Positions 2,549 to 63,639 of a stretch of DNA of 64,000 nt are shown in pieces (the first letter of the stretch is position 1; each line of letters opens with the position of its first letter). This stretch comes from an uncultured Verrucomicrobiota bacterium. GTDB taxonomy: Bacteria; Verrucomicrobiota; Kiritimatiellia; PWTM01. Made by a program: the position numbers and the translations under genes. The notes under the pieces were generated by a model. That model searched no databases. It saw nothing but the letters and a program-made list of their open reading frames with translations, and had not been told where the DNA came from. Location: NCBI GenBank assembly GCA_964402695.1, contig CAYODK010000003.1, positions 22,697-86,696 on the forward strand. Direction: 5' to 3'.

Positions 2549-3844
2549 CTACACCAGCGCCCACGGCCCGCGGTACGCGCGGGACATCATGCGCGCCGCC
2601 TGCGCGTCGCCCTCGAAGGCCTCCTTCGCCGGGTTCCACTTCAGCGGGCGGCGGAGCTGCATCGCGATGTTGCCGAGGTTGCAGACCGTGGTCGTGCGGT
2701 GCCCGATGGCGAGGTCGGCGACCGGCTTCGCCCGGCTGCGGATGCAGTCGAGGAAGTTCGCCATGTGCGCGTTGCCGCTGTCGCCGCCCTTGCCGGCGCC
2801 GCCGTCGATCTTGAGCAGGGCCTCGTCGCTCGCCTTGAGCTTCGAGCGCGAGACGTCGATCCAGCCCTTCGTGCCGAAGAATTTCACGTTGCCGTCGTAG
2901 ACGCCGTCGGTGCGCGTGCGGACGCGCAGCCGGACGCCGCTCGCGTAGGTCGCCGTGAAATCGACGCGCGTCGGCGCCGTGAAGAGGCCGGAGCTGGGAA
3001 ACTCGCCGGAGCCCTCGACGCCGACCGGGCCGGACGCGTCCATGCCGAGCGCCCACTGCGCGATGTCGATGTAGTGCGCGCCCCAATTGGTCGTCTGCCC
3101 GCCGGCGTAGTCCATGATGTAGCGGAACTGGTAGTGCGTCCGCTGCGACGTGTACGGCGCCCACGGCGCGGGGCCGATCCAGAAGTCGTAGTCGAGCCCC
3201 TCGGGCACGGGCTCGGGCTTCCACGTCGCGCCGACGTACTTGTTGTTGGCCGGGATCAGGATGTCGATGTGGTCGACCGTCCCGAGGTGGCCCTTGGCGA
3301 TGATGCCGGCGACGTAGCGGAAGGAGGCGTCGGACCGCTGCATCGTGCCGGTCTGGCCGACGCGGCCGTGCTTGCGCAGCTCGGCGACGAGGACCTGGCC
3401 CTCGCGGATGCTGTGGGTCAGCGGCTTCTCGACGAAGACGTCCTTGCCGTTGCGGATCGCGTCGAGCGCCGGCAGCACGTGCCAGTGGTCGGGCGTCGAG
3501 ACGACGATCGCGTCGAGGTCCTTCCGCCGCGTGATCTCGCGGAAGTCGCCGACCGCCGCGCAGCCGGTGCCGCCCTGGCCGGCGTCGACCTTCTTCGCCG
3601 CCTTCGCCGCCACGATGCGGTCGACGTCGCAGACCGCGACGATGCGCGCGCCCTGGTCGCGCAGCTTGAGGACACGGTCGATGTTGCTCATCCCCATGCC
3701 GCCGACGCCGACGAAGCCGAACGTCACCTGCTTCGAGGGAGCGTCCGCGCCGAGCACGCGGGAGGGGACGATCTGCGCGGCCGCGACGGCCGCCGCGGCG
3801 GCCGAGGAGGACTTGAGGAAGCTCCGACGGGAAACCGGGTTCAT
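2549..3844 (-). CDS. Gfo/Idh/MocA family oxidoreductase, Tat-exported
   Basis: Start at Met134 of track ORF 2549..4243: MNPVSRRSFLKSSSAAAAAVAAAQ (twin-arginine). Rossmann FGFVGVGGMGMSN and VFVEKPLTH (EKP motif). ATG overlaps upstream stop (ATGA). Confidence 0.8.
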   Translation of the reverse strand: MNPVSRRSFLKSSSAAAAAVAAAQIVPSRVLGADAPSKQVTFGFVGVGGMGMSNIDRVLKLRDQGARIVAVCDVDRIVAAKAAKKVDAGQGGTGCAAVGDFREITRRKDLDAIVVSTPDHWHVLPALDAIRNGKDVFVEKPLTHSIREGQVLVAELRKHGRVGQTGTMQRSDASFRYVAGIIAKGHLGTVDHIDILIPANNKYVGATWKPEPVPEGLDYDFWIGPAPWAPYTSQRTHYQFRYIMDYAGGQTTNWGAHYIDIAQWALGMDASGPVGVEGSGEFPSSGLFTAPTRVDFTATYASGVRLRVRTRTDGVYDGNVKFFGTKGWIDVSRSKLKASDEALLKIDGGAGKGGDSGNAHMANFLDCIRSRAKPVADLAIGHRTTTVCNLGNIAMQLRRPLKWNPAKEAFEGDAQAARMMSRAYRGPWALV

Positions 3845-4392
3845 GCCGCACCTCCGCCCAGGGTCTTGAAGGCCGCGCGCGCGGCGATGGTCCCGGCCAG
3901 CCCGTCGCGGGCGGGACCGGAGAGCTTCGGAAGGGCCGCCTGGAGCGCCGCATCGACCTCGGCGCCGGGGATGTTCTCCAGCGCGTACCGGGCCACGTCG
4001 CTCGTCTTCGCGCCTTCCAGCAGCGGCGCAAGGACCGGCACCGACGCGGCGGAGCCGATCAGGGCCAGCATCCGGCAGGCGAAGTCGCGCGCGGCGTCCG
4101 TGCAGCCGGCGTCCTTGAGGATGCCCAGGACCTTCTTCTCGAGGGCGGGGTACTGCGAGGGATCCGCGTCGAAGATCAGCGTCTGGAGACCCGAGGCGAA
4201 CGTGCGGTCGCCGCCGAACTCCATCGCCGCCGCCTCGGTCCACGGATCGGGCGACTTCTTGAACTCGTCCATCCGTTTGTCCGCATCGGCGTACTTCAGC
4301 GGGTCGCTCGACGCCCGCTTGTCCTGCGCCCGCGCGGCCGCGGCGGCGATCCCCGCCGCCAGCGCCAGCCCGGCTGTTGTCCGTTCGTTCAT
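3841..4392 (-). CDS. secreted hypothetical protein with HEAT-like repeats
   Basis: 183 aa. Signal MNERTTAGLALAAGIAAAAARAQ. Helical repeat-like C-terminal half. Translationally coupled to the oxidoreductase. Confidence 0.45.
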   Translation of the reverse strand: MNERTTAGLALAAGIAAAAARAQDKRASSDPLKYADADKRMDEFKKSPDPWTEAAAMEFGGDRTFASGLQTLIFDADPSQYPALEKKVLGILKDAGCTDAARDFACRMLALIGSAASVPVLAPLLEGAKTSDVARYALENIPGAEVDAALQAALPKLSGPARDGLAGTIAARAAFKTLGGGAA

Positions 4393-4407: not shown

Positions 4408-4518
4408 GGTTTCAGGTGTCAGGAAGGAGGAGTTTCAAGTTCCAAGTTTCACGTTTCAAGTTCAGAAGTCAGCCTCTTGGATGTTGGCTGTTGGGCGTTG
4501 GATGTTGGATGTTGAATC
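4408..4518. repeat. Composite heptanucleotide tandem-repeat element: GGTGTCAGG word, (GTTNCAA)x6 then (TTGGNTG)x6
   Basis: Read directly: gtttcaa gttccaa gtttcac gtttcaa gttcaga agtcagc ctc ttggatg ttggctg ttgggcg ttggatg ttggatg ttgaatc. Abuts the stop of the DUF1080 gene. Confidence 0.7.
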
Positions 4519-4519: not shown

Positions 4520-5236
4520 CTATTTGGCCGCCTGGATCTTCAGGTTCCGGTACGCGACCTCGTCGTTGTGGTCCTGCAGCAGCAGGTGGCCGTCGGGCCA
4601 CTCGCCGAAGCCGGCGATCTTGGAGAACTTGCTCTTGGCGACCTCGGCGCGGAAGGCGTCGGAGCCGCGCTCGTACTCGACGACCTTGGCGCCGTTGAGC
4701 CAGTGCTCGACGTGCTTTCCCTTCACGACGACGCGCGCGGAGTTCCACTCGCCGATCGGGTTGACCTTCTTGCCCTTCGCGGCGGGCAGGATGTCGTAGA
4801 GCGACCCGACGGTGCGGTTGCCGTCGCGGCCGAGCTTCGCGTCGGGATGGTTGTCGTCGTCGAGGACCTGGAACTCGCACCCGACGCCGTGGCCGCCCTG
4901 CGCGCGGGAGGGGTCGATGAAGTACTTCAGTCCGCTGTTGGCGCCCTTCGTCAGGCGGAACTCGAAGCAGAGCTCGAAGTCGGCGAAGCGGTCCTTCGTG
5001 ATGATGTCGCCGGCCTTCGCGGCCTTGCCGATGGTCAGCGTGCCGTCGACCGCCTTCCACCCCGCGCCGATCTCCGGCTTCGCGAGACCCTTCCACGCAT
5101 CGAGGCTCTTCCCGTCGAACAGCAGCTTCCAGCCGTCCGCGACCTCCTGCGAGGTCAGCGTATTGCACTCCGCCGCCCCCGCGACGCACGCGACGAGAAC
5201 CGCACCCGCCATCCATCCGGCCATCCGCTTCATCAT
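4520..5236 (-). CDS. DUF1080 (3-keto-disaccharide hydrolase-like) secreted protein
   Basis: Signal MMKRMAGWMAGAVLVACVAGAAEC. Then GWKLLFDGKSLDAWKG...WKAVDGTL...FELCFEFRL...GCEFQVLDD...EWNSARVVVKG..VEHWLNG, characteristic of DUF1080. The upstream part of the track ORF (MGAGCWMLI) is repeat translation and is rejected. Confidence 0.85.
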   Translation of the reverse strand: MMKRMAGWMAGAVLVACVAGAAECNTLTSQEVADGWKLLFDGKSLDAWKGLAKPEIGAGWKAVDGTLTIGKAAKAGDIITKDRFADFELCFEFRLTKGANSGLKYFIDPSRAQGGHGVGCEFQVLDDDNHPDAKLGRDGNRTVGSLYDILPAAKGKKVNPIGEWNSARVVVKGKHVEHWLNGAKVVEYERGSDAFRAEVAKSKFSKIAGFGEWPDGHLLLQDHNDEVAYRNLKIQAAK

Positions 5237-5319
5237 GAGATCCCCCCGGCAGCCAGGCGCACCGACGCCCGGGCAAGCCGCGCCAATCCTATCACGCCCG
5301 CCGCGCGCGGATAAACCCC

Positions 5320-5362
5320 GAATCAACATCCAACAACCAGCGCCCAACAGCCAACATCCAAT
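5320..5362. repeat. (TTGGNTG)n heptamer array in reverse orientation, ~85 bp upstream of the DUF1080 start
   Basis: caacatccaacaaccagcgcccaacagccaacatccaa read directly. Confidence 0.6.
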
Positions 5363-6767: not shown

Positions 6768-7141
6768 ACCTCCTTCTCGATACCCATGTCGTCCTGTGGT
6801 GGCTGGCGGATGCGCCCGAGCTGGGCGCCGGGGCGCGCGATGCGATCGCCGACCCGGCCAACGTGGTCCACGTCAGCGCCGTCACCGCATGGGAGATCGT
6901 TGTGAAACGCGCCTTGGGAAAGCTGGAGATCCCGGACCGATGGGAGCAGGCGCTGGCGGAGGAGCCGTTCCCGCAGTTGGCCATCTCCTGGCGCCACGCC
7001 TTGCAGGTTGGACAGCTTCCGGACATTCACCGCGACCCCTTTGACCGGCTGCTGGTCGCCCAGGCGGTCGTCGAAGGCCTGACGCTGGTCACCCGCGACG
7101 AGGCCCTCGCCCGCTACGGCATCGCCACGCTGAAGGCGTAG
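6764..7141 (+). CDS. vapC: PIN-domain toxin VapC
   Basis: 125 aa. MNLLLDTHVVLWWL. Paralog of the 53004..53408 product (HRDPFDRLLVAQA vs HRDPADRILIATS). Confidence 0.8.
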   Translation: MNLLLDTHVVLWWLADAPELGAGARDAIADPANVVHVSAVTAWEIVVKRALGKLEIPDRWEQALAEEPFPQLAISWRHALQVGQLPDIHRDPFDRLLVAQAVVEGLTLVTRDEALARYGIATLKA

Positions 7142-7149
7142 CCGCGCAT

Positions 7150-7330
7150 TCTGCCACGCATTCTCTGTCCCCGCGTCCCACTGTCCCCGCGTCCCAGACG
7201 GGCAGGACAGGATGACAGGATCGACAGGATAGGGATGCGGCGGCCACATGCTTGGCTCGGTGGAGGGAGATCCAACCTTCCACAGAGGCTCCGCCTCAAT
7301 CCTGGACATCCTGTCATCCCGTCCGGTTCC
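7150..7330. repeat. Intergenic repeat region: direct 16-mer x2 (ctgtccccgcgtccca) plus inverted arrays of GACAGGAT units
   Basis: ggacaggatgacaggatcgacaggatagg ... cctggacatcctgtcatcccgtcc read directly. Lies between convergent genes. Confidence 0.5.
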
Positions 7331-7360
7331 TCAGGCCGTCAGCGGGTTCGGGGTTCGGGC

Positions 7361-14529: not shown

Positions 14530-15129
14530 TCACTTCTCGGGGATGAAGAGCTTCTGGCCCGCCCGCACCTTCGACGGGTCGCTGATCCCGTTCTCCTGGG
14601 CGATGACCGCCTGCGTGACGCCGTAGGCGGCCGCGATGGCCGACAACGTCTCGCCGGGCTTCACCACGTGCTCGTAGCCGGTCGCGCTCGAGGAACGGCG
14701 GACGGGAGTCGTGGATCGCGTCGCCCCGGACGACGAGCCGCCGGAGCTCTTCTTGAGCATGTCCGCAACCCGGCGGCTGATGTCGTCGACGATCGCCTGC
14801 CGGTCGCTCTCCCGCGCCGTCTCCAGCTGCCGGACGCGCGTGCCCAGTTCCTGCACCTGTCCCTGCACGAGGCGGCCCTGGCTTTCGCCCGCCGTCGACG
14901 CCAGCCGGCGGACGGCCTCGTTGTCCGCGGCGAGCCGCTGCGTCTCCATCTCCAGGCCCTCGATGCGGCCCGACAGGCGCTGGATCTGCTCCTGAAGCGC
15001 GCGGACGTCCTCCTGCTGCCGGACCTGCTGCGCGTTCATGTCCTCGAAATACGTGGCGCACCCCGGGCCCGCCGCGAGTGCGAGCGCCGCGAGGGCGAGG
15101 GGCGCCCCGGCATGAAGAATACGGATCAT
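14530..15129 (-). CDS. LysM peptidoglycan-binding protein with coiled-coil
   Basis: Signal MIRILHAGAPLALAALALAAGPGCA. C-terminal LysM YEHVVKPGETLSAIAAAYGVTQAVIAQENGISDPSKVRAGQKLFIP. Confidence 0.75.
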   Translation of the reverse strand: MIRILHAGAPLALAALALAAGPGCATYFEDMNAQQVRQQEDVRALQEQIQRLSGRIEGLEMETQRLAADNEAVRRLASTAGESQGRLVQGQVQELGTRVRQLETARESDRQAIVDDISRRVADMLKKSSGGSSSGATRSTTPVRRSSSATGYEHVVKPGETLSAIAAAYGVTQAVIAQENGISDPSKVRAGQKLFIPEK

Positions 15130-15164
15130 GGGGCCACCCTAGCGGACGACGGGGGCAATTCAAG

Positions 15165-15242
15165 CGGATTCAACATCCAACACCCAACATCCAACATCGA
15201 AGCCGGTGCAACCTGAAACTTGGAACTTGGAACTTGAAACTC
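15165..15242. repeat. Composite heptamer element in a divergent promoter region: (CAACANC)x4 then GAAACTT/GGAACTT x4
   Basis: caacatc caacacc caacatc caacatc gaagccggtgcaacct gaaactt ggaactt ggaactt gaaactc. The reverse complement is the (GTTNCAA)n(TTGGNTG)n element oriented toward the LysM gene start ~45 bp away. Contains GGAAC/TGAAAC words. Confidence 0.7.
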
Positions 15243-15283
15243 CCGGATGCCATGATGCGCGACACTCTGCACGGGAGACGGAC

Positions 15284-16651
15284 ATGCGACGGTGGGCGGT
15301 TCTTGCGGCGGGGCTGGCGGCGTGGGTCGGCATCTCGGGCGCGGCGGAGCCGCGGCCGAACGTGGTCGTGATCATGACCGACGACCAGGGCACGATCGAC
15401 GCGCATTGCTGTGGCGCGGCGGATCTCGAAACGCCGGCGATCGACCGGCTCGCCCGGGAGGGGGTCCGGTTCACGCAGTTCTACTCCGCCGCCCCCGTCT
15501 GCTCGCCGTCGCGCGCCGGTCTGCTGACCGGCCGCTACCCTCCCCGCGCCGGCGTGCCGAACAACGCGCCGTCGGAATCCGGCAGGGCCGGCATGCCGCC
15601 ATCCGAGGTCACGATGGCCGAGATGTTCAAGGCCGCCGGCTACGCGACCGCTCACATCGGCAAGTGGCACCTCGGCTACTCGCCGGAGACGATGCCGAAC
15701 GCGCAGGGCTTCGACCTCTCGTTCGGCCACATGGGCGGCTGCATCGACAACTACTCGCACTTCTTCTACTGGCAGGGTCCGAACCGCCATGACCTGCACC
15801 GCGACGGCGTCGAGATCCACCGTCCCGGCCGCTTCTTCCCGGACCTGATGGTCGGGGAGGCCTCGGCGTTCCTCCGCGCGAACCGTGCCCGCCCCTTCTT
15901 CGTCTACTTCGCGCTCAACCTGCCGCACTACCCGTACCAGGGCGACGAGAAGTGGCTGAAGCGCTACGCGTCGCTGCCGCACCCGAGGAACCTCTACGCG
16001 GCCTTCGTCTCGACGCTCGACGAGCGCGTCGGGCGGCTGCTCGACGAACTCGATGCCCTCGGCCTCGCGTCGAACACGGTCGTCGTCTACCAGTCCGACA
16101 ACGGCCACTCGACCGAGGAGCGCGCGCACTTCGGCGGCGGATCGGCCGGCGAGTACCGCGGCGCCAAGTTCAGCCTGTTCGAGGGCGGCATCCGCGTCCC
16201 GGCGATCGTCCGCTGGCCCGGCCGCATCCCCGCCGGCGCGACACGCGACCAGGTCGGCCACGGCTGCGACTGGCTGCCGACGCTCGCGGAGTTGTGCGGC
16301 GTGAAACCGCCGGAGGCCGCGCTCGACGGGCGCAGCCTCGTCCCGGTGATCCGCGACGCCTCGGCGCCGACGCCGCACGACGTGCTGCACTGGCAGGTCG
16401 GCGGGCCGTGGGCCGTGCGCGAGGGCGACTGGAAGCTGCTCGGCCAGCCGCAGGACACGGGCGTCCGCCCGGCGGAGAAGCTGCCGAAGCTGTTCCTCGT
16501 CAACCTGCGCGACGACCCGCGCGAGCGGACCAACCTCGCCGACCGCGAGCCCGCGCGCGTGCAGCGCATGAAGGCGCTCCACGAGGCGTGGGTGGAAGAC
16601 ATCGGACGTCAACAACCAACATCCAACAGCCAACAACCAACAACCAAGTAG
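15284..16651 (+). CDS. sulfatase
   Basis: Start at Met27 of track ORF 15206..16651. Signal MRRWAVLAAGLAAWVGISGAAEP. PNVVVIMTDDQG. CSPSRAGLLTGRY. The last ~13 codons (QQPTSNSQQPTTK) are a translation of the heptamer repeat. Confidence 0.9.
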   Translation: MRRWAVLAAGLAAWVGISGAAEPRPNVVVIMTDDQGTIDAHCCGAADLETPAIDRLAREGVRFTQFYSAAPVCSPSRAGLLTGRYPPRAGVPNNAPSESGRAGMPPSEVTMAEMFKAAGYATAHIGKWHLGYSPETMPNAQGFDLSFGHMGGCIDNYSHFFYWQGPNRHDLHRDGVEIHRPGRFFPDLMVGEASAFLRANRARPFFVYFALNLPHYPYQGDEKWLKRYASLPHPRNLYAAFVSTLDERVGRLLDELDALGLASNTVVVYQSDNGHSTEERAHFGGGSAGEYRGAKFSLFEGGIRVPAIVRWPGRIPAGATRDQVGHGCDWLPTLAELCGVKPPEAALDGRSLVPVIRDASAPTPHDVLHWQVGGPWAVREGDWKLLGQPQDTGVRPAEKLPKLFLVNLRDDPRERTNLADREPARVQRMKALHEAWVEDIGRQQPTSNSQQPTTK

Positions 16652-16723
16652 CGAACGGGAGGACGTGCCCGCTTCGTTGGGTGTTGGGTGTTGGGTGTTG
16701 GTTGTTGGGCGTTGGCTGTTGAG
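16609..16723. repeat. Inverted pair of heptamer arrays, (CAACANC)x6 ... (TTGGNTG)x7 with ~28-nt spacer; potential long hairpin
   Basis: caacaac caacatc caacagc caacaac caacaac caagtag ... ttgggtg ttgggtg ttgggtg ttggttg ttgggcg ttggctg ttgagc read directly. Confidence 0.7.
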
Positions 16724-16767
16724 CTTCCCCGTGCCATGATGCCCGGCAACCTGCAGGGAGACGCATC

Positions 16768-19203
16768 ATGACGCGACGGATGGCGGCGGCAGTAGGTCTG
16801 GCGGCCGGGCTCGGGGCGGCGGCGGGCGCGGCGGAGCCCGTGTGTGTGTCGGGCACCTACCCGCACCTGGCGATGTTCAACAACGAGGGCGAGTGCGGCA
16901 CCGGCGCCGTCGTGCCGTGGGCCGACCGGCTCTGGGTCATCACCTACGGACCGCACCTGCCGAACGGGTCGTCGGACAAGCTCTACGAGATCACGCCCGC
17001 CCTCGATCAGATCATCCGTCCCGAGAGCCTCGGCGGCACGCCGGCCAACCGGATGATCCACCGCGAGTCGAACCAGCTCGTCATCGGCCCCTACTTCATC
17101 GACGCGCAGCGCACCGTCCGCGCGATCCCCTACACGAGGATGCCCGGCCGCCACACCGGCAACGCGCGGCACCTGGCCGACCCCGCCGGCAAGGTCTTCT
17201 TCGCGACGATGGAGGAGGGCCTCTACGAGGTCGACGTGAAGACGCTGGAGGTCCGCGGCCTGATCCGCGACGGCAACTTCAAGAAGCCGCTTCCGGGCGA
17301 GACGAACCCCGCGACGATCGACTCCCAGCTTCCGGGCTACCACGGCAAGGGCTTCTATTCCGGCCAGGGGCGGCTCGTCTACGCCAACAACGGCGAGCGC
17401 GGCAACGTCCACGACCCCACGATCCCCAGCGGCGCGCTGGCCGAATGGACCGGCGAGGGCGACTGGCGTCTCGTCCGCCGCAACCAGTTCACCGAGGTCA
17501 CCGGCCCCGGCGGCATCGAGGGCAACCCGAATCCCGCGACCGACCCGCTGTGGAGCGTCGGCTGGGACCACCGGTCGCTCATCCTGATGCTGCTCGACCG
17601 CGGCGCGTGGCACGCCTACCGTCTGCCGAAGGCGAGCCACTGCTACGACGGCTCCCACGGCTGGAACACCGAGTGGCCGCGCATCCGCGACATCGGCGGG
17701 GCCGACCTGCTGATGACCATGCACGGCACGTTCTGGCGCTTCCCGAAGGCCTTCGCAGCCGCAACGTCGGCCGGCATCGCCCCGCGCTCGACGTATCTGA
17801 AGGTCGTCGGCGATTTCTGCCGCTGGAACGACCGGGTCGTGCTCGGCTGCGACGACAGCGCCAAGAGCGAGTTCCTCAACAAGCGGAAGCTCAAGGGCGG
17901 CATCGGCGGGCCGGGGCAGTCGCAGTCGAACCTGCGGTTCCTCGACCCGGCCGACCTCGACCGCATGGGCCCCGCCCTCGGCCGCGGCGCGGTCTGGCTG
18001 GCCGACGCCGTGAAGGCGGACGAGCCGTCCGACCCGTTCCTCTTCGCCGGCTTCCCTCACCGCTCGCTGCACCTCGCGCACGACGGCGCGGAGGCTGTGA
18101 CGTTCACCCTCGAGGTTGACGCGAAGGGCGACGGCACCTGGACGAAGCTGAGGACCGTTCCGGTGCCGGCGCACGGCAGCGCGTGGACCGCCTTTGGCGC
18201 CGGCGAGGCCGGCGCGTGGATCCGCGTCCGCGCCGACCGCGACTGCGCGAAGGCGACCGCGTTCTTCCACCTGCGCGGCGACGATCCGCGCCCGGCGAAG
18301 GCCGACCCGATGTTCGACGGCATCGCGAGGCCCGGCGACGCGAAGGTTCTCGGCGGCCTCCTCTACGCCCGCGGCGGCGGCATCAAGACCCTGCGCATGG
18401 CCGCGGGTGGCGGCGGCGACACGTGCTTCGACCTCGACGCGGGGCTGAAGCTGGTTGCGACGAATGACGCGACCGGCGCGGCCTACACACGCAAGAACTA
18501 CGCGATTCCGGCCGATGTCGTCACGATCGACGAGGCCTCCGTGCTGATCGTCGATGAGAAGGGCCGCCGCTGGCGGCTGCCCAAGGGCGATCCCGCGTTC
18601 GACGCGCCCGGCCCGCTCGGCGCCGAGCGCGTGTGCCGCGAGGTCTGCACCGAACGCGACCTGCTCAACGTCGGCGGCGCCTTCTACGAGCTGCCCGCCG
18701 AGAACGCCGGCGGCCTGATCAAGGTCCGCCCGGTCGCGACCCACAACCGGCGCATTCTGGACTACACGTCCTACCGCGGCCTGCTCGTCATCAGCGGCGT
18801 CGCGGCCGACGCCCCGGCCGGCCCGCACATCGTCCGCAGCGACGACGGCGCGGCGGCGCTGTGGGTCGGCTCGGTCGACGACCTCTGGAAGCTCGGCAAG
18901 CCGCGCGGACGTGGCGGGCCTTGGAAGGACACGGCGGTCGAGGCCGGCGCGCCCAGCGACGCCTATCTCATGACCGGCTTCGACCGGCGGTCCGTCGAGT
19001 TCACCCACGACGCCGGCGGCCCCGTCACGATGCGCATCGAGGCCGATGTCACCGGCACCGGCGCGTGGACCGACCACGCCTCGGTCGAGGTCCCGAAGGG
19101 CGCGACCGTCCGCCACAAGTTCCCCGCCGCCTTCGGCGCCTACTGGGTCCGCGTCACCGCCTCCAAGCCCTGCCGCGCGACGGCGGCGTTCGCCTACGAA
19201 TAG
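16768..19203 (+). CDS. secreted hypothetical protein with duplicated C-terminal ~130-aa domains
   Basis: 811 aa. Signal MTRRMAAAVGLAAGLGAAAGAAEP. Internal duplication (DPFLFAGFPHRSLHLAHDGAEAVTFTLEVDAKGDGTWTKL...CAKATAFFHL vs DAYLMTGFDRRSVEFTHDAGGPVTMRIEADVTGTGAWTDH...CRATAAFAYE). Confidence 0.6.
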   Translation: MTRRMAAAVGLAAGLGAAAGAAEPVCVSGTYPHLAMFNNEGECGTGAVVPWADRLWVITYGPHLPNGSSDKLYEITPALDQIIRPESLGGTPANRMIHRESNQLVIGPYFIDAQRTVRAIPYTRMPGRHTGNARHLADPAGKVFFATMEEGLYEVDVKTLEVRGLIRDGNFKKPLPGETNPATIDSQLPGYHGKGFYSGQGRLVYANNGERGNVHDPTIPSGALAEWTGEGDWRLVRRNQFTEVTGPGGIEGNPNPATDPLWSVGWDHRSLILMLLDRGAWHAYRLPKASHCYDGSHGWNTEWPRIRDIGGADLLMTMHGTFWRFPKAFAAATSAGIAPRSTYLKVVGDFCRWNDRVVLGCDDSAKSEFLNKRKLKGGIGGPGQSQSNLRFLDPADLDRMGPALGRGAVWLADAVKADEPSDPFLFAGFPHRSLHLAHDGAEAVTFTLEVDAKGDGTWTKLRTVPVPAHGSAWTAFGAGEAGAWIRVRADRDCAKATAFFHLRGDDPRPAKADPMFDGIARPGDAKVLGGLLYARGGGIKTLRMAAGGGGDTCFDLDAGLKLVATNDATGAAYTRKNYAIPADVVTIDEASVLIVDEKGRRWRLPKGDPAFDAPGPLGAERVCREVCTERDLLNVGGAFYELPAENAGGLIKVRPVATHNRRILDYTSYRGLLVISGVAADAPAGPHIVRSDDGAAALWVGSVDDLWKLGKPRGRGGPWKDTAVEAGAPSDAYLMTGFDRRSVEFTHDAGGPVTMRIEADVTGTGAWTDHASVEVPKGATVRHKFPAAFGAYWVRVTASKPCRATAAFAYE

Positions 19204-22612: not shown

Positions 22613-22800
22613 CGATTTCCGGCCCCACCGGGACAAGCCCGGTGGGAGCCAAGAGGGACGGCCGATCGCTCCCACCGGGCTTGTCGAGGTGCGAGTCCGA
22701 AACTCGTACTCTTGCTCCGCTCCCACCGGGCTTGCCCGGTGGGGGGCCGGATGATGAGGCGAAGCGGCGTTTCCACCGGGCTTGTCCCGGTGGGGCGGAA
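22613..22800. repeat. REP cluster: four copies of the palindrome CCCACCGGG-N6-CCCGGTGGG (left flank of the RAYT gene)
   Basis: ccccaccgggacaagcccggtggg, cccaccgggcttgtcgagg (partial), cccaccgggcttgcccggtgggggg, ttccaccgggcttgtcccggtggggcgg read directly. Confidence 0.8.
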
Positions 22801-22818
22801 AACGAAGGGGGGCGATGC

Positions 22819-23598: not shown

Positions 23599-23750
23599 TT
23601 TCCGGCCCCACCGGGACAAGCCCGGTGGGAGCCAGAGATCTCGTACACTCGGCCCGCTCCCACCGGGACGAGCGCGGTGGGAGCCTGAAGAGACGGCCCG
23701 CTCCCACCGGGCTTGTCCCGGTGGGGCGGAAACGGGTGGAGGCGGGGGCC
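23596..23750. repeat. REP cluster, three copies (right flank of RAYT)
   Basis: ccccaccgggacaagcccggtggg, cccaccgggacgagcgcggtggg, cccaccgggcttgtcccggtgggg. Confidence 0.8.
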
Positions 23751-28817: not shown

Positions 28818-28868
28818 GTTTCACGTGGTTGGATGTTGGTTGTTGGGTATTGGCTGTTGGATGTTGAT
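28818..28868. repeat. (GTTTCAC)(TTGGNTG)x5 heptamer element ~40 bp upstream of the GH26 start
   Basis: gtttcac gtgg ttggatg ttggttg ttgggta ttggctg ttggatg ttgatc. Confidence 0.7.
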
Positions 28869-28908
28869 CTCTCGTGGCATGCTGTCCGCGACACGCGGGA
28901 GGAGACTG

Positions 28909-30711
28909 ATGAAACGAGCGGCACGGCTTGTTGCAATGGCGGCGGGGCTGGCGGCGGCGGCCGGGGCGGTCGAGCCCGTGGACCGCGACCTCATTCCCGA
29001 GGCGCGGGCGGCGCTTGGCTACCTCGAGTCCGTCTACGGGAAGCAGTCGCTCGGGGCGGTGTCGGGCACCGACAACGCGGGGTTCGTCCAGGAGGTGTCC
29101 GGGCGACTGCCGGCGATCGTCTCGTTCGACCTGTGCGGCTGGAACAGCCCGACGTGGGGCAAGACCTACACGCCGGTGGTCGAGCGCTCGGTCGAGGCGG
29201 CGAAGGAATGGTGGGACCGCGGCGGCATCGTCGCGATGCAGTTCCACTGGAAGCATCCCGCGAAGACCAACGGCTCCGCGTGGGTCGGCAAGCACGGCAA
29301 CAGCCCGCCGAGCGGCCCCTACGACATGGCGAACGTCACGAAGCCCGGCACGCCCGCGCACGGGGCGTTCATGACGGATCTCGCGAGGCACGCCGACTAC
29401 CTGCAGCGGCTCGCCGACGCCCGCGTGCCGGTGCTGTGGCGTCCGTTCCACGAGATCGACGGCGGCTGGTTCTGGTGGACGGATCAGGAGACCCCGGAGA
29501 ACACCGCCGCCGCCTGGCGGATGATGTTCGACTTCCTCGTGAAGGAGCGGAAGCTCCACAACCTGATCTGGGTCTTCAATCCCGGCGTCCACGCGGGCGG
29601 CTACAAGAAGATGCTGCGCGAGACGAAGAAGGAGGCCACGCTCGCCAACGAGATCGCGTTCCGCAAGCGCTACTACCCCGGCGCGGCGTACTGCGACCTC
29701 GCGGGCATCGACATCTACCCGAACAAGGCCGAGGGCTACGGCGATCCCACGGGCGACACGTTCCCGAAGGCGTGGGAGATCATGACGCAGGTCGCGCCGG
29801 GGAAGATGCTCGCGATGTGCGAGTCGTCCGGCGTGATCCATCCCGGTCTCATGGAGAAGAACGGCCCGCGCTGGCTCTACACGCTCCAGTGGTTCCCCGG
29901 CGAGCCCGCCTATGCCCGCGAGGTCTACAACCATGACTTCCTCGTTACCCTCGACGAATTGCCGCCGCTGAACCCCGACGCCCTGCCGTTCGCGCGGCTG
30001 GTCGCGCCGGCGGACGGCGCGGCGCCGCCCGCGGGCGCGGTGGAGCTGAAGGCCGACACCGGCGCGCGGACGGACGGCATCGCGCAGGTCGAGTTCCTCG
30101 CCCTGGCCGGACCGTGGAAGAACGGGTGGATGATGAAGGCCTCGGAGAAGGAGGAGTCCTTCGCCGGCGCGACGTCGGTCGGCGTCGCGAAGGCGGCGCC
30201 GTTCACCGTGTCATGGAAGGCCCCGCCCGCCGGGCTGCACACGGTCGTCGCGCGCATCACGGACCGGAAGGGCCGGTCGACGCTGTCCAACGCGGCGCGG
30301 GTGAGTGCGGGGCTCGACAACCTGGCGCGGCGCGGGACGTTCACCGCCTCGTCGGGGGCCGACGGCGCGGCGAAGGCGGGCGACGGCGACCCCTTCACGT
30401 CGTGGAACGGCGAGAAGAAGGACGACCAGTGGCTGGCGGTCGATCTCGGCGCGGCGAAGACGGTCGGCGCCGTCGCGGTGTCGTGGTGGAAGGCCTACGC
30501 GAAGGCGTGGGAGATCCAGGTCTCCGACGACGGCGCGGCGTGGCGGACGGTCCACGCGGTGCCGAAGAAGAGCGAGTTCCTCGGCAACACCGACGTGGTC
30601 CGGTTCGACCCGGTCCGCGCGCGGCACGTCCGCCTTCTCTGCAAGCAGCGCGCCACCGACTGGGGCGGCTACACGGTCTACGAACTCGGCGTCTACGGGA
30701 GCCTTCCATGA
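28909..30711 (+). CDS. glycoside hydrolase family 26 (mannanase-like) with C-terminal F5/8 type C (CBM32-like) domain
   Basis: Signal MKRAARLVAMAAGLAAAAGAVEP. WRPFHEIDGGWFWW GH26 signature. Discoidin-like FTSWNGEKKDDQWLAVDLGAAKTVGAVAVSWW...GGYTVYELGVYG. Confidence 0.85.
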   Translation: MKRAARLVAMAAGLAAAAGAVEPVDRDLIPEARAALGYLESVYGKQSLGAVSGTDNAGFVQEVSGRLPAIVSFDLCGWNSPTWGKTYTPVVERSVEAAKEWWDRGGIVAMQFHWKHPAKTNGSAWVGKHGNSPPSGPYDMANVTKPGTPAHGAFMTDLARHADYLQRLADARVPVLWRPFHEIDGGWFWWTDQETPENTAAAWRMMFDFLVKERKLHNLIWVFNPGVHAGGYKKMLRETKKEATLANEIAFRKRYYPGAAYCDLAGIDIYPNKAEGYGDPTGDTFPKAWEIMTQVAPGKMLAMCESSGVIHPGLMEKNGPRWLYTLQWFPGEPAYAREVYNHDFLVTLDELPPLNPDALPFARLVAPADGAAPPAGAVELKADTGARTDGIAQVEFLALAGPWKNGWMMKASEKEESFAGATSVGVAKAAPFTVSWKAPPAGLHTVVARITDRKGRSTLSNAARVSAGLDNLARRGTFTASSGADGAAKAGDGDPFTSWNGEKKDDQWLAVDLGAAKTVGAVAVSWWKAYAKAWEIQVSDDGAAWRTVHAVPKKSEFLGNTDVVRFDPVRARHVRLLCKQRATDWGGYTVYELGVYGSLP

Positions 30712-32361: not shown

Positions 32362-33591
32362 ATGACACGTTATCGCAGGCGGGAGGTGGGGGTATTGCTG
32401 GCGCGGGCGCTGAAGCAGGCGCCGGTGGTGGTGGTCAGCGGGCTGCGCCAGTCGGGGAAGAGCACGCTGCTGCGGCAGGATCCGGCGGTCAGCGCCGGCC
32501 GCGCGTACCGGACTCTCGACGACCTGGACCTGCTCGCCGGCGCGCAGGCGGCGCCGCGTCCGTTCCTGGAGGCGGAGCCGGTGATGGCGCTGGATGAGGT
32601 GCAGCGTCTGCCATCGCTGTTCCTGCCCCTGAAGCAGACCGTCGATGAGGACCGCCGTCCGGGCCGCTTTGTCCTGACGGGCTCGGCCAACCTGCTGCTG
32701 CTCAAGAGCGTGGCGGACAGCCTGGCGGGTCGCGCGGTGTACGCCACGCTGCACCCAATGAACCGGCGCGAGATCCTGGGCCGCATCGACCGTCCCCCGG
32801 CGACGGTCCGGTTCCTGGCCGAAGGACGATGGCCGTCGGTCCGGGACGTGCCCGCGGTGACAGAGTCCGAGATCCTGCGCGGCGGATTCCCGGAAGTGGC
32901 CCTGCATCCGGACCTCGATGCGACGCTGTGGTTCGAGGGCTTCGAGCGGACGTATCTGGAGCGCGATGTGCGGGACCTGCGGCAGGTGGCCGACCTCGTG
33001 AGCTTCCGCCGGCTCCTTCGCCTGACGGCCCTGCGGGTGGGCGGCGTTCTGAACGTCAACGGGCTGGCGCGCGACGCGCAGTTGCCCGAGGCGACGGTGC
33101 GCAATCATCTGAACCTGATGGAGACGCTGATGGTCATCCGCCGGCTGCCGCCCTTCCGCGGCAACCGAAGCGCGCGGCTGATCAAGGCGCCGAAGCTGTA
33201 TCTTGCCGATACGGGGCTGGCCGCCTTCCTGGCCGGTGTGCGGGATATCGGGGCCGGCTCCGCGGAACCCTTGCGGGGCGCGCTGATCGAGAACTATGTT
33301 GTCCAGAACCTGATCGCCGCGATGGAACCGCACCTCGCCGGCGTGCAGTTCCATTACTGGCACGAGCAGGGGCGGCACGAAGTGGATCTAGTGGTCGAAT
33401 ACGGACGGCAGGTGCTGGCGATCGAGATCAAGGCCGGCGGACGCCTGGCGCCGGGGGACACCCGCGGGCTCGAAGCGTTCATGGCTCGCACCCCCGGGTG
33501 CGTGGGCGGGGTCGTCGGCTACCTCGGTCGCGACGTGGTGCCGTTGGGAGCGAAGATCCGGGCCGTTCCGCTGTCGCTGCTGCTTTCCTGA
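32362..33591 (+). CDS. AAA-family ATPase with C-terminal DUF4143-like domain
   Basis: Walker A VVVSGLRQSGKSTLL, LALDEVQ Walker B-like. Alternative start 32347. Preceded by an unusually AT-rich segment with TTCGTA/TACGAA inverted repeats. Confidence 0.75.
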   Translation: MTRYRRREVGVLLARALKQAPVVVVSGLRQSGKSTLLRQDPAVSAGRAYRTLDDLDLLAGAQAAPRPFLEAEPVMALDEVQRLPSLFLPLKQTVDEDRRPGRFVLTGSANLLLLKSVADSLAGRAVYATLHPMNRREILGRIDRPPATVRFLAEGRWPSVRDVPAVTESEILRGGFPEVALHPDLDATLWFEGFERTYLERDVRDLRQVADLVSFRRLLRLTALRVGGVLNVNGLARDAQLPEATVRNHLNLMETLMVIRRLPPFRGNRSARLIKAPKLYLADTGLAAFLAGVRDIGAGSAEPLRGALIENYVVQNLIAAMEPHLAGVQFHYWHEQGRHEVDLVVEYGRQVLAIEIKAGGRLAPGDTRGLEAFMARTPGCVGGVVGYLGRDVVPLGAKIRAVPLSLLLS

Positions 33592-34035
33592 AGTGTCACG
33601 CTCCACTTGAATCGCCGGGACTTCCCGAGCCCCCGCATCGGCATGGGCCGATCCGCTCCTGCCTGTCCGCCGGAGCCTCGGGTTGCGAAGGCGAAAGCGG
33701 ATCCCCGCGGTGCTCGCGGGAGATGAAGATCGCTGCGCTCAACGACGACCGCGCCGTCATCGAGCGCATTCCGCCATCGCCCCGGGCGGCTACGACGGAC
33801 AGGCCTGCGCCACCTCGGCCTGTGGCGTGCCCACCATAGCTTCAGCGAAGGAGGGGGACAGGGCGTGCGCGTCACGCCCGCCACCTGCCCCGCGTGGAAG
33901 AAGAAGGCCAGGCCCCTTGCAGCATCGCAGCCCGGAGGCTGAGCCGTCGGCCGGGGTCCCGCGGGGCCGGCTTCAATTCCTTCCTGCGATCGGTCAGGAT
34001 CCGGCCGCGTGGTGCGTTGCATTCATCGGTGCACG

Positions 34036-34563
34036 ATGGCCCTGTCGCACGAAGAGATCATGCGGAGCCTGTTCGCGGCCCGGTCGAGGCTGTCCGCGGC
34101 GGCGTGGGTCGTCGTGCGCGACGCCCAGGCGGCGGAGGACCTTTTCCAGAACGTCGCGCTGAAGGCCATGACGAAGAACGTCGTGTTCGAGCACGAGGGG
34201 GCGTTGCTTTCGTGGGCCACCGTGTCCATCCGGCGCGAGGCGATCGACTGGATCCGGCGTCGCCGGCCCGAACTGCCCGGCCTCGACCCGGACGTTCTCG
34301 ACCTTCTTGACGCGGACGCGCAGGCTTCCGCCGTCGCCGACTCGGGGCGCGTGGGCGCCCTACGGGATTGCCTTGAAGCGGTGCCCGAACCGGCCCGGCG
34401 CCTTCTCGAACTGCGCTATTTCGACGGCCACACGTGCGGCGAGGTGGCCCGCCGGGCCGGGCTCGGGCTCGACGCCGTCTACCAGCGGCTCTCGCGGCTT
34501 CACCGGCAGCTTCGCGCGTGCATCGAACAGCGGCTCGCCGCCGGGGCGGAGGCGGTTCCATGA
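34036..34563 (+). CDS. ECF-type RNA polymerase sigma factor
   Basis: Region-2-like LFQNVALKAM. Region-4 HTH ELRYFDGHTCGEVARRAGLGLDAVYQRLSRLHRQLR. Stop overlaps the anti-sigma start (ATGA). Confidence 0.8.
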   Translation: MALSHEEIMRSLFAARSRLSAAAWVVVRDAQAAEDLFQNVALKAMTKNVVFEHEGALLSWATVSIRREAIDWIRRRRPELPGLDPDVLDLLDADAQASAVADSGRVGALRDCLEAVPEPARRLLELRYFDGHTCGEVARRAGLGLDAVYQRLSRLHRQLRACIEQRLAAGAEAVP

Positions 34564-56014: not shown

Positions 56015-56095
56015 GGACGCAGGGAAGCACGATCAAAGTGGTCCGGGAGGGCCGCCGGGTTGATTCCGCGCTGTGCCGCGGCTACTCTGCGCATC

Positions 56096-62791: not shown

Positions 62792-63639
62792 TGCCGCCGG
62801 CGATCATCCTGTGCGGCGGCCGCGCCACGAGGCTGGCCGCTCTCCACGGCGACCGCCCGAAGGCGCTCGTGCCGGTCGCGGGCCGCCCCTTCCTCGAGTG
62901 GCAGATCGCGTGGCTCGCGCGCGGCGGCGTGCGACGTGTCCATCTCGCCGCCGGCCACCTGGCGGACCAGCTCGCGGCGTGGGCGGAGGAGGTGTCAGGT
63001 GTCGGGTGTCCGGTGTCAGGAGGACGGGCCGGATGGCTGCCACCGATGATTCGATATCTGTCCTCCGGCGTCCTCGAGGGCGGGGGGTTGACATCCGGTG
63101 CCCGGTGTTCGGCCTCCGCCCCTGACACCCGACACCTGACACCTGAAACCTCCGTGTCTCTTTCCGTCGAGCCCCGGCCGCTGGGCACGGGCGGCGGATT
63201 GCGGTACGCGGCGGACTTTGTCGACGGCGACGCGATGCTCGTGGTGAACGGCGACACGCTGCTGCCCGGCCTGGATTTCCAAGGGTTGGAAGCCGCGGCC
63301 GAGCGGACTTCCAAGGGTTGGACGTCGATCGCGGTGACGCGGGTCGACGACGCGGCCCGGTTCGGAACCGTGACGGTCGAGGACGGCCGCGTGGTCGATT
63401 TCCTCGAAAAGGGGCGCTCCGCGTCGGGCTGGATCAACGGCGGCGTCTACCGGATGAGCCGCGCGGCCGTCGACTCGATCCCGCGCGAAACGGCCGTTTC
63501 CATCGAGACCGACCTCTTCCCGGACTGGGCGCGCGACGGCCGCATCGCCGCCGTCCCCGCCGATCCGCCCCTGCTCGACATGGGCACGCCCGACGGTCTC
63601 GCGGAGATGGTCCGCTGGCTGGACGCGCACCGCCCGTGA
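62788..63639 (+). CDS. sugar-1-phosphate nucleotidyltransferase (HddC/ManC-like) carrying an in-frame ~160-bp palindromic insertion
   Basis: AIILCGGRATRL (G-G-x-x-T-R), PLGTGGGL, VVNGDTL, GVY motifs in HddC order. Insertion lies between AAWAEE and VSLSVEPRPLGTGGG. Confidence 0.8.
   Translation: MMPPAIILCGGRATRLAALHGDRPKALVPVAGRPFLEWQIAWLARGGVRRVHLAAGHLADQLAAWAEEVSGVGCPVSGGRAGWLPPMIRYLSSGVLEGGGLTSGARCSASAPDTRHLTPETSVSLSVEPRPLGTGGGLRYAADFVDGDAMLVVNGDTLLPGLDFQGLEAAAERTSKGWTSIAVTRVDDAARFGTVTVEDGRVVDFLEKGRSASGWINGGVYRMSRAAVDSIPRETAVSIETDLFPDWARDGRIAAVPADPPLLDMGTPDGLAEMVRWLDAHRP
62989..63148. mobile_element. MITE-like element with terminal inverted repeats built from NGGTGTC heptamers (ggtgtcaggtgtcgggtgtccggtgtcagg ... 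cctgacacccgacacctgacacctg)
   Basis: Read directly inside the nucleotidyltransferase ORF. No stop codon introduced. Confidence 0.55.

Follow-up and report, generated by a model that had tools for sequence, protein, structure and literature searches.

The window (the whole stretch of DNA that was analysed, 64,000 nucleotides) contains six loci at which 7-nt units are repeated in tandem. Five of them, loci A to E, are intergenic, and the exception, locus F, is located inside a gene. The first-pass annotation had listed loci A to E and had missed locus F as well as a third heptad at 4408-4425 within locus A. The gene identities that it gave near the arrays agree with Pfam. The features are as follows.

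4408..4518, minus strand: locus A, three arrays between the DUF1080 stop codon (4520) and the start of a 183-aa gene (3841-4392, minus strand), 15 nt from the ATG at 4392
4408-4425: array 1 of locus A, GGTTTCA/GGTGTCA, 2.5 units of the third heptad
4431-4462: array 2 of locus A, (AGTTYCA)4.6; minus-strand reading (CTTGRAA)n
4476-4518: array 3 of locus A, (GTTGGNN)5 with a GTTGAAT cap
5320..5362, minus strand: locus B, a single (GTTGGNN)5 array with a GTTGATT cap, 83 nt from the DUF1080 start codon (5236, minus strand)
5286-5294: TGaTAGGAT, a -10-like box between the locus B array and the DUF1080 start
15136..15163, minus strand: putative LysM core promoter, TTGAAT (15163-15158), N16, TAGGGT (15141-15136), N6, ATG (15129)
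15165..15242, unstranded: locus C, in the divergent intergenic region between the LysM and sulfatase genes, 38 nt from the LysM start (15129, minus strand) and 41 nt from the sulfatase start (15284, plus strand)
15168-15198: arm 1 of locus C, (CAACANC)4; on the minus strand it is (GTTGGNN)n and is directed at LysM
15213-15242: arm 2 of locus C, (CTTGRAA)4 on the plus strand, directed at the sulfatase
15248..15257, plus strand: TGCCATGATG motif, 5 nt beyond the array and 32 nt 5' of the sulfatase ATG, with the Shine-Dalgarno sequence GGGAGAC after it
16607..16724, unstranded: locus D, an inverted pair of one heptad with a 28-nt loop, forming an imperfect hairpin of ~32 bp, 43 nt from the ATG (16768, plus strand) of an 811-aa gene
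16610-16647: left arm of locus D, (CAACANC)5, which doubles as the last 13 codons of the sulfatase
16676-16724: right arm of locus D, (GTTGGNN)6 with a GTTGAGC cap
16732..16741, plus strand: TGCCATGATG motif, 32 nt 5' of the ATG at 16768 (811-aa gene)
28818..28868, plus strand: locus E, GGGAGTTTCACGTG followed by (GTTGGNN)5 with a GTTGATC cap, 40 nt from the GH26 start codon (28909, plus strand)
28875..28884, plus strand: TGGCATGCTG, a variant of the TGCCATGATG motif, 30 nt 5' of the ATG at 28909
62989..63152, plus strand: locus F, an in-frame insertion of ~47 codons in a nucleotidyltransferase gene, with (GGTGTCN)4 at 62989-63020, a ~98-nt core and (NGACACC)4 at 63119-63152

The heptad arrays are far beyond chance. 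TRF and sequence reading identify head-to-tail 7-nt arrays at all five of the loci noted earlier, with a period of 7 and 3.6-6.6 copies at every locus, and comparison with shuffles upholds them. The pattern GTTGGNNGTTGGNNGTTG (GTTGGNN repeated 2.5 times, at most one mismatch) has 23 matches in the window, all of them within loci A-E, versus 0 in 100 shuffles. TTGRAACTTGRAAC has 6 matches versus 0.02 and is restricted to loci A and C. A lag-7 self-similarity scan of the window returns 8 segments, and the other lags from 4 to 12 return 0-2 each.

Each unit consists of a fixed 5-nt core and two free positions. The main unit is GTTGG+NN, and the related units are CTTGR+AA and CCTGA+CA. Across 68 tallied units, positions 1-5 are fixed at 88-99%, position 6 is open (A24/C17/G15/T12) and position 7 is T in 85%. 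The single variable position described earlier is thus a pair of adjacent ones (GTTGG+NN). A -35-like TTGR or CTGA is part of every unit, and each array has a polar TTGA cap as its gene-proximal unit.

The five loci had been regarded as copies of one two-part element, but (GTTYCAA)n and (TTGGNTG)n occur together only at loci A and C. Locus B is a single array, and locus E contains merely 1.5 GTTTCA units, a vestige of a second arm. In locus D, (CAACANC)5 precedes (GTTGGNN)7, the same heptad in reverse complement, and the locus is therefore a single heptad in inverted repetition. The TTG/TGAC strand points outward at each of the five two-armed loci, which has a chance probability of (1/4)^5 if the loci are independent. 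The orientation of arms towards a gene is not significant (7 of 9, p ~0.09); the arm at 4476-4518 in locus A and the left arm of locus D face a gene 3' end, not a start codon.

The arrays are located 15-83 nt 5' of seven start codons. The distances reported earlier hold, and two more are added by the 183-aa gene at locus A and the sulfatase (15 and 41 nt). A non-coding position is also usual at related loci with independent gene calls, where 88-95% of the DNA is coding: eight of 11 arrays are non-coding, two occupy the last codons of a gene and one is ambiguous.

Promoter-like sequences stand beside the arrays. On the LysM side of locus C, the array is 4 nt upstream of the putative -35 box as measured to the first array base (15168), and 8 nt as measured to the TTG of the cap unit. 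The layout of this putative promoter is identical in three strains and, judging from the sequence, would give a leaderless transcript. Because the array is positioned upstream of the conserved -35/-10 pair, it would not be transcribed from that putative promoter. At locus B, strain L120 keeps both the array and the TGaTAGGAT box. Three strains share the reference promoter TTGATT-N17-TACTCT-N7-ATG, and the array caps GTTGAAT and GTTGATT, like the gene-proximal TTGA unit itself, therefore resemble the -35 boxes of this lineage, TTGAAT and TTGATT.

The sulfatase, 811-aa and GH26 genes, all on the plus strand, share a second kind of motif. TG[GC]CATG[ACG]TG occurs three times in the window versus 0.35 expected. 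Each occurrence follows an array by 5-16 nt and precedes an ATG by 30-32 nt, with a Shine-Dalgarno sequence located between motif and start codon, and the orthologues are all alike. The version upstream of the GH26 gene, TGGCATGCTG, is conserved as TGGCATGGTG in strain L125. A TTGNNN hexamer is found 16-18 nt upstream of the CATGAT box in eight of eight C and D orthologues, despite indels. The CATGAT sequence is without the usual first T of a -10 box. A strict sigma-70 consensus scan and a terminator scan of these regions return no sites, and the promoter assignments therefore rest on a relaxed TTGnnn / TAnnnT reading together with conservation. In a test of -35 spacing, four of five distinct offsets are compatible, which is not significant (p ~0.1). 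Two other readings of the motif were rejected. A sigma-54 reading of TGGCATGCTGTCCGC is approximated in its -24/-12 elements only at locus E, and loci C and D have GC for the -24 GG. The ATGATG within the motif is not coding as a leader peptide or true start, because its frame relative to the main ORF, with an offset of 30 or 32 nt, varies between orthologues and an upstream Shine-Dalgarno sequence is absent.

ECF promoters combine a GGAAC/TGAAAC -35 element, a spacing of 16-17 nt and a CGT-type -10 element. The first-pass annotation suggested that the arrays mark such a regulon, with the tandem GGAACTT/TGAAAC words serving as -35 boxes for the sigma factor encoded at 34036-34563. An ECF-type sigma gene is indeed present there, inside the window, the words do occur at loci A and C, and the arrays do have a promoter-side placement in that they abut conserved promoter-like motifs; the link to an ECF sigma factor and its regulon fails. 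Loci B and D are without the words, and the single TGAAAC of locus E faces away from GH26. No CGT-type -10 box is found 16-19 nt downstream in the window or the orthologues read. Among orthologues, GGAAC is located 17 or 22 nt from the conserved motif, whereas the TTGNNN hexamer keeps to 16-18 nt. Furthermore, the array upstream of the 811-aa gene is built from GTTGGNN in one lineage and from GGAACTT in another. The region upstream of the sigma gene (33560-34036) contains neither heptads nor GGAAC; autoregulation through a motif upstream of the sigma gene is usual, not universal, for ECF factors. Spacing, the absent -10 box, the word-less loci and the sigma gene's own upstream region lead us to reject the ECF promoter reading, to which we assign a negligible probability.

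Do the arrays act in RNA instead? They might serve as CA- or GU-rich leaders or trailers bound by S1, CsrA or cold-shock proteins, or as hairpins that stabilise or terminate transcripts or are cut by RNase III, of the kind found in the hmw 5'-UTR of Haemophilus. Locus D is placed exactly between two co-directional genes and folds strongly (-65.9 kcal/mol, z -6.4 versus shuffles), locus F reaches z -7.1, and the left arms of loci A and D are at gene 3' ends. C-rich arrays in other phyla often adjoin start codons, translational control has been proposed for TAACTGA repeats by MacGregor (PMC4679880), and the hmw heptamer repeat is transcribed and makes an RNase III hairpin (PMC12721329). Against this, the folding of loci A, B, C and E does not exceed that of shuffles on either strand (z -1.4 to +0.6), and the 5'-leader structure considered earlier as a general feature is thereby rejected, since only loci D and F exceed shuffles. 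Rfam at gathering thresholds has no matches in the whole window. Both array orientations relative to the downstream gene occur, the LysM and DUF1080 arrays are upstream of a putative -35 box, and locus D is without a U-tract, in line with the empty terminator scan. Taken together, the two variants of an RNA function are quite unlikely. The heptad arrays are neither ECF promoters nor, in general, RNA structures.

Arrays occur at the same sites in strains with at least 90% protein identity, and sites A, B, C and D were compared between the window and strains L120 and L210; the contigs derive from freshwater metagenomes, Lake Tanganyika among them. Variation between strains affects 1 of 80 alignment columns at core positions, 10 of 33 at free positions and 63 of 337 in the flanks (core versus flank, Fisher test p=9e-6), although the in-register alignment of repeats can overstate core conservation. 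The cores are far more conserved between strains than the coding or non-coding flanks, and this difference argues for sequence-specific constraint. Concerted evolution could contribute to the conservation of the cores, though the free positions should also have been homogenised. Changes in the arrays between strains consist of whole-unit indels, one 7-nt indel being present among the three strains, and of substitutions that fall only on the two free positions.

The feature is lineage-specific and not tied to a gene family. Among 78 relatives of the 811-aa gene, anchored on orthologues, the motif is located upstream only in the 92%-identical one, which is the basis for this assignment; the 77 distant orthologues (57-72% identity) have no motif and at most one period-7 array of any kind.

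Such a distribution also fits neutral slippage, according to which the arrays are functionless by-products that expand wherever they are tolerated, in intergenic DNA, at gene ends or in a surface loop, and their nearness to promoters only reflects where non-coding DNA is located in a ~90% coding genome. Period 7 dominates generally: across phyla, 119 loci contain 181 arrays of period 7 versus at most 9 for each of the periods 5, 6 and 8-11. Polymerase slippage is credited with the heptamer excess (Mrazek 2007, as summarised in PMC4679880 and PMC4692102). The whole-unit indel between strains is consistent with slippage, as is the drift of locus F, which at ~80% nucleotide identity resembles that of neutral sequence. 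Tandem repeats of 8, 9, 11 and 16 nt are also present in intergenic regions of this lineage, including the same regions as the arrays, and fit a general slippage tendency.

The internal make-up of the arrays is harder to reconcile with neutral slippage. Adjacent units are mostly unlike at their NN positions and seldom identical, whereas slippage gives identical neighbours. Variation is restricted to 2 of 7 unit positions, the cores exceed the flanks in conservation without homogenisation of the free positions, the same polar TTGA cap ends every array, and one orientation is kept in all two-armed loci. Across phyla, a concentration of variation at particular unit positions is seen at about the chance level (7 of 95 unbiased arrays at p<0.05), in a test that is diluted by array edges. 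Slippage without any function is thus a somewhat unlikely account of the arrays.

The arrays might alternatively be the termini of small non-autonomous mobile elements of the MITE kind, possibly with outward promoter parts. Correia elements in Neisseria provide a precedent for outward-facing promoter parts. The inverted arms of loci D and F form strong hairpins. The ~47-codon insertion at locus F is without a counterpart in distant homologues and PDB relatives of the nucleotidyltransferase. Loci A, C and E have both end sequences in common, GGGAGTTTCA... and ...GATGTTGAWYC, and the 4408-4425 array of locus A is the reverse complement of the right end of locus F. The two arms of locus C are separable: the gap between them is 15 nt in the window and measures ~170 nt in two related strains at the orthologous site, an interior difference of ~155 nt. 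In one acidobacterial MAG (L029, L119), similar hairpins recur with conserved flanks.

Other observations disfavor mobility. Within the few strains and ~150 kb compared, no presence/absence polymorphism is seen, all syntenic sites being occupied and locus F being present in all close relatives, and target-site duplications are likewise absent. A suspected empty site for locus A in strain L210, where HEAT and DUF1080 are fused in one protein, proved to involve a non-orthologous protein. The internal cores of loci C, D and F are unrelated. The arms of loci A and C are different heptads that do not pair. As to terminal inverted repeats, the picture is mixed: loci D and F have inverted arms, and loci A, C and E have unlike end heptads with a weak common GGGAnTTCAA. 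No associated transposase was found. The window does contain a Y1_Tnp gene, flanked by CCCACCGGGACAAGCCCGGTGGG palindromes (22616-22802, 23600-23732) that are unrelated to the heptads, and a RAYT/REP link was rejected. We consider a mobile origin unlikely.

A further mechanism proposed for the Xanthomonas GGGAATC repeats is the formation of a G-quadruplex or i-motif. The right arm of locus D contains four GGG tracts, and G-rich heptamer repeats form quadruplexes in vitro (PMC4692102). With the exception of that arm, most units contain only GG, the GTTYCAA arrays have no G runs, and the orientation to ORFs is opposite to that of Rehm et al. A quadruplex-based action is accordingly very improbable.

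We propose that the arrays are heptanucleotide tandem repeats of the STRR or long-simple-sequence-repeat kind that are retained as promoter-side heptads bound by protein on double-stranded DNA, a tentative reading to which we give a probability of roughly 0.4. The arrays would arise and be resized by replication slippage, and they would be retained because proteins bind their contiguous 7-bp sites in duplex DNA next to core promoters. Each arm would serve the gene that it faces, and the elements described as composite would be two such arms placed back to back. One candidate binder is region 4 of sigma-A, given that the units hold a -35-like TTGR/CTGA and that the gene-proximal unit is always TTGA. 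A second candidate is a cooperative repressor or activator that reads heptads, comparable to the omega protein of plasmid pSM19035.

A stronger form of this proposal is that a single cooperative protein, be it a heptad-binding regulator or sigma-A, reads the heptads as a code in the DNA, in which the core would serve recognition, the free bases would stabilise the arrays against slippage and the number of units would set promoter output for a group of genes. We regard this form as distinctly improbable. If it is true and if similar readers exist in other phyla, it would explain the excess of 7-nt repeats in bacterial intergenic DNA.

The present arrays are an unusually clean case, since they are short and the split between core and free positions is visible between strains. 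They adjoin putative core promoters of glycan-degrading and cell-wall genes, and the question of why such repeats are heptamers becomes testable. For annotation, heptad elements should be recorded neither as ECF promoters nor as RNA motifs, and their occurrence extends into coding sequence at the sulfatase C-terminus and in the 47-codon loop insert of the nucleotidyltransferase.

Records of heptanucleotide repeats in bacterial intergenic DNA go back to 1990, and these repeats are the commonest long simple repeat in many large genomes. To our knowledge, no function has been shown for them outside a few phase-variable pathogen genes. The arrays described here belong to this known but unexplained class, to which they add new units and a new host lineage. 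As far as the kind is concerned, the view that no described element has this architecture therefore does not hold: earlier work documents intergenic heptanucleotide tandem repeats close to the ends of ORFs, with an excess in non-coding DNA and with differences in length and sequence between close relatives (PMC4692102, PMC4679880). Examples include the GGGAATC / GGGGAYT repeats of Xanthomonas and Nostoc (Rehm 2015, PMC4692102), the TAACTGA repeats of Beggiatoaceae, Cyanobacteria and Bacteroidetes (MacGregor 2015, PMC4679880) and, as cited in these two papers (PMC4692102/PMC4679880), the cyanobacterial STRR (Mazel 1990) and LSSR5-11 (Mrazek 2007). Like the members of this STRR/SSR class, the present arrays usually consist of ~4-7 tandem 7-nt units with period 7 over-represented, are biased to non-coding DNA within tens of nucleotides of ORF starts or stops, form occasional inverted pairs, and occupy the same intergenic sites in related strains with varying length and sequence. 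They differ from the class in their units (GTTGGNN, CTTGRAA and GGTGTCN) and in their host, a Lentisphaerae-like PVC bacterium with 71% GC. Moreover, their units are imperfect, five positions being fixed as a core and two left free, and their arms are regularly paired back to back, end in a TTGA cap and are tied to a conserved promoter-like motif. In contrast to the Xanthomonas repeats, they are in opposite orientation to ORFs.

Short, dispersed, intergenic sequences that often form inverted hairpin pairs and sometimes contribute promoter parts are also typical of REP/BIME-REPIN elements and MITEs. REP elements are unit palindromes tied to the RAYT transposase. Unlike REP and MITE families, the heptad elements were found without target duplications, empty sites or shared interiors.

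Two functional systems provide closer parallels. The (ATCTTTC)n repeat of Haemophilus influenzae hmw1A/hmw2A, like arrays here, is made of heptamers and precedes the gene of a secreted or surface protein; its copy number tunes expression, and one arm can pair with the downstream region (PMC12721329). The hmw repeat is perfect, has at least 11 units, is hypermutable and is transcribed in the 5'-UTR, whereas the units described here are imperfect and few and some of the arrays are upstream of a putative -35 box. The omega heptads of pSM19035 are contiguous 7-bp sites in direct and inverted order that are read by a ribbon-helix-helix protein and of which at least four are needed (PMC9499535). The present arrays likewise consist of gapless 7-bp units with a conserved pentamer and degenerate edges, occur in direct and inverted order with at least four units and stand beside promoters, which are putative here. 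The omega heptads are plasmid-borne WATCACW units with a known reader, whereas the present arrays use another unit at many chromosomal sites, and the resemblance is thus one of mechanism only.

The window (G+C content, 70.7%) contains period-7 arrays of 3.6-6.6 copies at loci A-E, as located by Tandem Repeats Finder and confirmed by direct reading. Each heptad is a 7-nt unit with a fixed 5-nt core and two free positions (NN). A lag-7 scan adds a sixth locus, F.

Heptad arrays of the window
Locus A, 4408-4518: GAGGTTTCAGGTGTCAGG, then (AGTTYCA)4.6, then (GTTGGNN)5 with GTTGAAT last
Locus B, 5320-5362, minus strand: (GTTGGNN)5 with GTTGATT last
Locus C, 15165-15242: (CAACANC)4, 15-nt spacer, (CTTGRAA)4
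Locus D, 16607-16724: (CAACANC)5, 28-nt loop, (GTTGGNN)6 with GTTGAGC last
Locus E, 28818-28868: GGGAGTTTCACGTG, then (GTTGGNN)5 with GTTGATC last
Locus F: (GGTGTCN)4 at 62989-63020 and (NGACACC)4 at 63119-63152

These arrays are not chance events. With at most one mismatch, GTTGGNNGTTGGNNGTTG has 23 matches, all within loci A-E (0 expected from shuffles), TTGRAACTTGRAAC has 6 (0.02 expected) and GGTGTCNGGTGTC has 7 (0.45 expected). A self-similarity scan of the window returns 8 segments at lag 7 versus 0-2 at lags 4-12. The head-to-tail arrays reported by the first-pass annotation are thus real at all five loci. Its single two-part element fits A and C only; E retains a trace of the second half, D consists of one heptad arranged as an inverted repeat, and B has one array. 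Five loci have two arms (A, C, D, E and F), and in each of them the outward-facing strand is TTG/TGAC. The left end of A (4408-4425) is the reverse complement of the right end of F.

Other repeats lie nearby. REP-like palindrome clusters (CCCACCGGGACAAGCCCGGTGGGAGC) at 22616-22802 and 23600-23732 flank one gene, identified as a Y1_Tnp (IS200/RAYT-like) transposase by calls in three related contigs (L120, L125 and L211). REP-RAYT systems are classically arranged in this way. The heptads have no relation to it, and we rejected them as REP elements because the transposase gene is flanked by a different palindrome. A 43-bp tandem repeat at 981-1167 (4.3 copies, 90% identity) has in its unit CCGGGCTTGTC, similar to one half of the REP palindrome. 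The intergenic region 7141-7335 contains a 12-mer twice, the 16-mer CTGTCCCCGCGTCCCA twice and the 8/9-mer GACAGGAT(C) three times; a 76%-complementary partner in inverted orientation lies at 7299-7335. Several intergenic regions of the lineage carry tandem or inverted copies of another short motif, AAGCACGAAAC(A) (L120 8300-8340; L212 3120-3215; window ~56020-56035), the extra 170 nt between the locus C arms in L120 being one of them.

Genes adjoining the arrays
4520-5236 (-): DUF1080 / 3-keto-disaccharide hydrolase (Pfam)
14530-15129 (-): LysM protein (Pfam)
15284-16651 (+): sulfatase (Pfam)
28909-30711 (+): GH26 with F5/8-C domain (Pfam)
3841-4392 (-): secreted HEAT-like protein, 183 aa, adjoining locus A
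16768-19203 (+): 811-aa protein, no Pfam match

The claimed proximity to start codons holds for more genes than were listed: the distances from the arrays to start codons, seven altogether, are 15, 83, 38, 41, 43 and 40 nt, with locus C serving two divergent genes and locus A serving 4392(-), a start codon overlooked at first. The left arm of locus D encodes the final 13 sulfatase codons (QQPTSNSQQPTTK, then stop; 16610-16651), and the repeat has thus entered coding DNA at the 3' end of a gene. In related loci for which independent gene calls exist, coding sequence makes up 88-95%, yet 8 of 11 arrays there are non-coding, with 2 in terminal codons and 1 ambiguous.

In 68 units, drawn from relatives as well as the window, fixation is 88-99% at positions 1-5 (GTTGG), position 6 is free (A24/C17/G15/T12) and position 7 is T in 85%; a TTGA unit, the cap, forms the gene-proximal end of every array. 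When D and B are aligned between strains, 1/80 core columns, 10/33 NN columns and 63/337 flank columns (coding and non-coding) are variable (core versus flank, p=9e-6, Fisher test; in-register alignment of repeats can flatter the core). The arrays are rather unlikely to be neutral slippage products. Slippage alone makes neighbouring units identical and homogenisation would erase NN differences as well; the simplest reading is therefore selection on the core, subject to that alignment effect. The pattern S-Y-T-G-R-N-W fits all three heptads and is a putative -35-like word plus one base.

The sequence beside the arrays is promoter-like. TG[GC]CATG[ACG]TG has three occurrences in the window (0.35 expected). 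Each precedes an ATG by 30-32 nt, GGGAGAC or GGAGG lying between them, and follows an array by 5-16 nt. The motif is present in every orthologue and may be an extended -10 box (TGn + CATGAT). A TTGNNN hexamer precedes CATGAT by 16-18 nt in 8/8 C and D orthologues despite indels, and GGAAC precedes it by 17 or 22 nt. On the LysM side, the array starts just upstream of a putative -35 box in TTGAAT-N16-TAGGGT-N6-ATG, a layout identical in three strains. The clearly promoter-like, array-free reference TTGATT-N17-TACTCT-N7-ATG at 56060-56098, upstream of an epimerase gene and also conserved in three strains, indicates that the -35 box of this lineage resembles the array caps; it also suggests that leaderless transcripts may be common here. 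All sequence upstream of this layout diverges among the three strains. The equivalent upstream site in contig L214 (3220-3248) carries heptads, (CAGGTTT)2(CATCCCT)2, and in the window the 9-mer repeat (TCTGGCTCG)3.2 lies at 55953-55981. A strict promoter consensus scan found 0 sites in these regions, spacing and orientation tests were both not significant, and the promoter assignments beside the arrays are accordingly candidates.

The ECF sigma gene proposed at 34036-34563 is real. That the arrays are its promoters, marking an ECF regulon, is highly improbable: a -10 partner is missing, B and D lack ECF words, and the region upstream of the sigma gene has no heptads. Locus E has a single TGAAAC, pointing away from GH26. 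The 1273-aa ORF downstream of the sigma gene (34880-38701) shows no recognisable anti-sigma domain; it matches a hydrazine-synthase-alpha middle domain (PF18582, E 6e-20).

Locus D folds better than shuffles (-65.9 kcal/mol, z -6.4), as does locus F in a DNA fold (z -7.1); the other four loci (A, B, C and E) fold no better than shuffles, and Rfam gave no match. A 5'-leader structure is thus not supported as a general feature, and RNA-level roles for the arrays are improbable. Quadruplexes are a far more remote explanation.

Gene order (LysM-sulfatase-811aa) and array sites are common to the window, L120 and L210. The locus C arms are ~170 nt apart in those two contigs versus 15 nt in the window, indicating that arms are separable and each kept with its own gene. 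At locus D, the differences among three strains are a single whole 7-nt unit and substitutions, the latter confined to the variable dinucleotide. Contigs L125, L209 and L211 have another upstream neighbour for the 811-aa gene; (GGAACTT)2 GAGACTC replaces the GTTGGNN units there and is followed by the same downstream motif. Among 78 upstream regions of 811-aa homologues, the motif occurs only in the closest (92% identity) and in 0/77 others (57-72% identity, other PVC organisms), no more than one of which carries a period-7 array of any kind; the feature therefore belongs to the lineage and not the gene family. The 90% cluster of the protein contains a protein named 'Lentisphaerae bacterium'.

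Locus F lies in a nucleotidyltransferase ORF (62020-63639(+), real start near 62788). In the encoded protein, residues 5-62 and 121-269 match residues 4-61 and 73-215 of PDB 6jq8_A, leaving ~47 extra residues exactly at locus F, where the codon-position signal is flat. The whole element, inverted arms around a ~98-nt core, is in frame; close relatives (61-86% identity) have inserts of similar length and hypervariable sequence, and more distant homologues and PDB relatives have none. In DNA alignment the arms decay, at ~80% identity, with the frame unchanged. Locus F is an old heptad element, tolerated in frame within a loop. That the arrays generally are MITE-like elements is unlikely. In the intergenic DNA after this gene, 63717-63758 holds a near-perfect 20-nt palindrome (GTGTAACATTATCGAGTGCG / CGCACTCGGTAATGTTACAC, arms 2 nt apart), AT-rich for this genome, that looks like an operator.

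We propose, with a probability of roughly 0.4, that the promoter-side heptads would bind protein and act on DNA, with slippage generating the arrays and selection on the 5-nt core retaining them. The first-pass annotation knew of no described element of this architecture, but the class is already in the literature (PMC4692102, PMC4679880), and the window arrays are a real, further case of it. Among long simple repeats, heptamers are the most abundant class (Mrazek 2007, as cited in PMC4679880), and Calothrix has STRR repeats (as cited in PMC4692102). Xanthomonas GGGAATC repeats are intergenic, within 50 bp of ORFs, at sites kept in relatives with varying length (PMC4692102), and TAACTGA repeats closely precede start codons (PMC4679880). 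A screen for four GTTGGNN units across 185,579 species genomes matched at least 119 loci; those listed come from Acidobacteriota, Cyanobacteria, Bacteroidota, Planctomycetota, Verrucomicrobiota, Chloroflexota and others, and the matches listed contain, in addition, at least 74 period-7 arrays built from many different units, versus at most 9 at any other period. In a Candidatus Acidoferrum MAG, (CAACATC)n / (GATGTTG)n hairpins with ~20-nt loops recur on separate contigs (L029 34-140; L119 2059-2160) with the conserved flank ccgaggttcagggag; in that genome the same heptad belongs to a dispersed element. For this class, a function is known only for the phase-variable hmw heptamer (PMC12721329). 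A mechanistic precedent is the omega heptads of pSM19035, whose contiguous 7-bp units are read by protein in direct and inverted order (PMC9499535).
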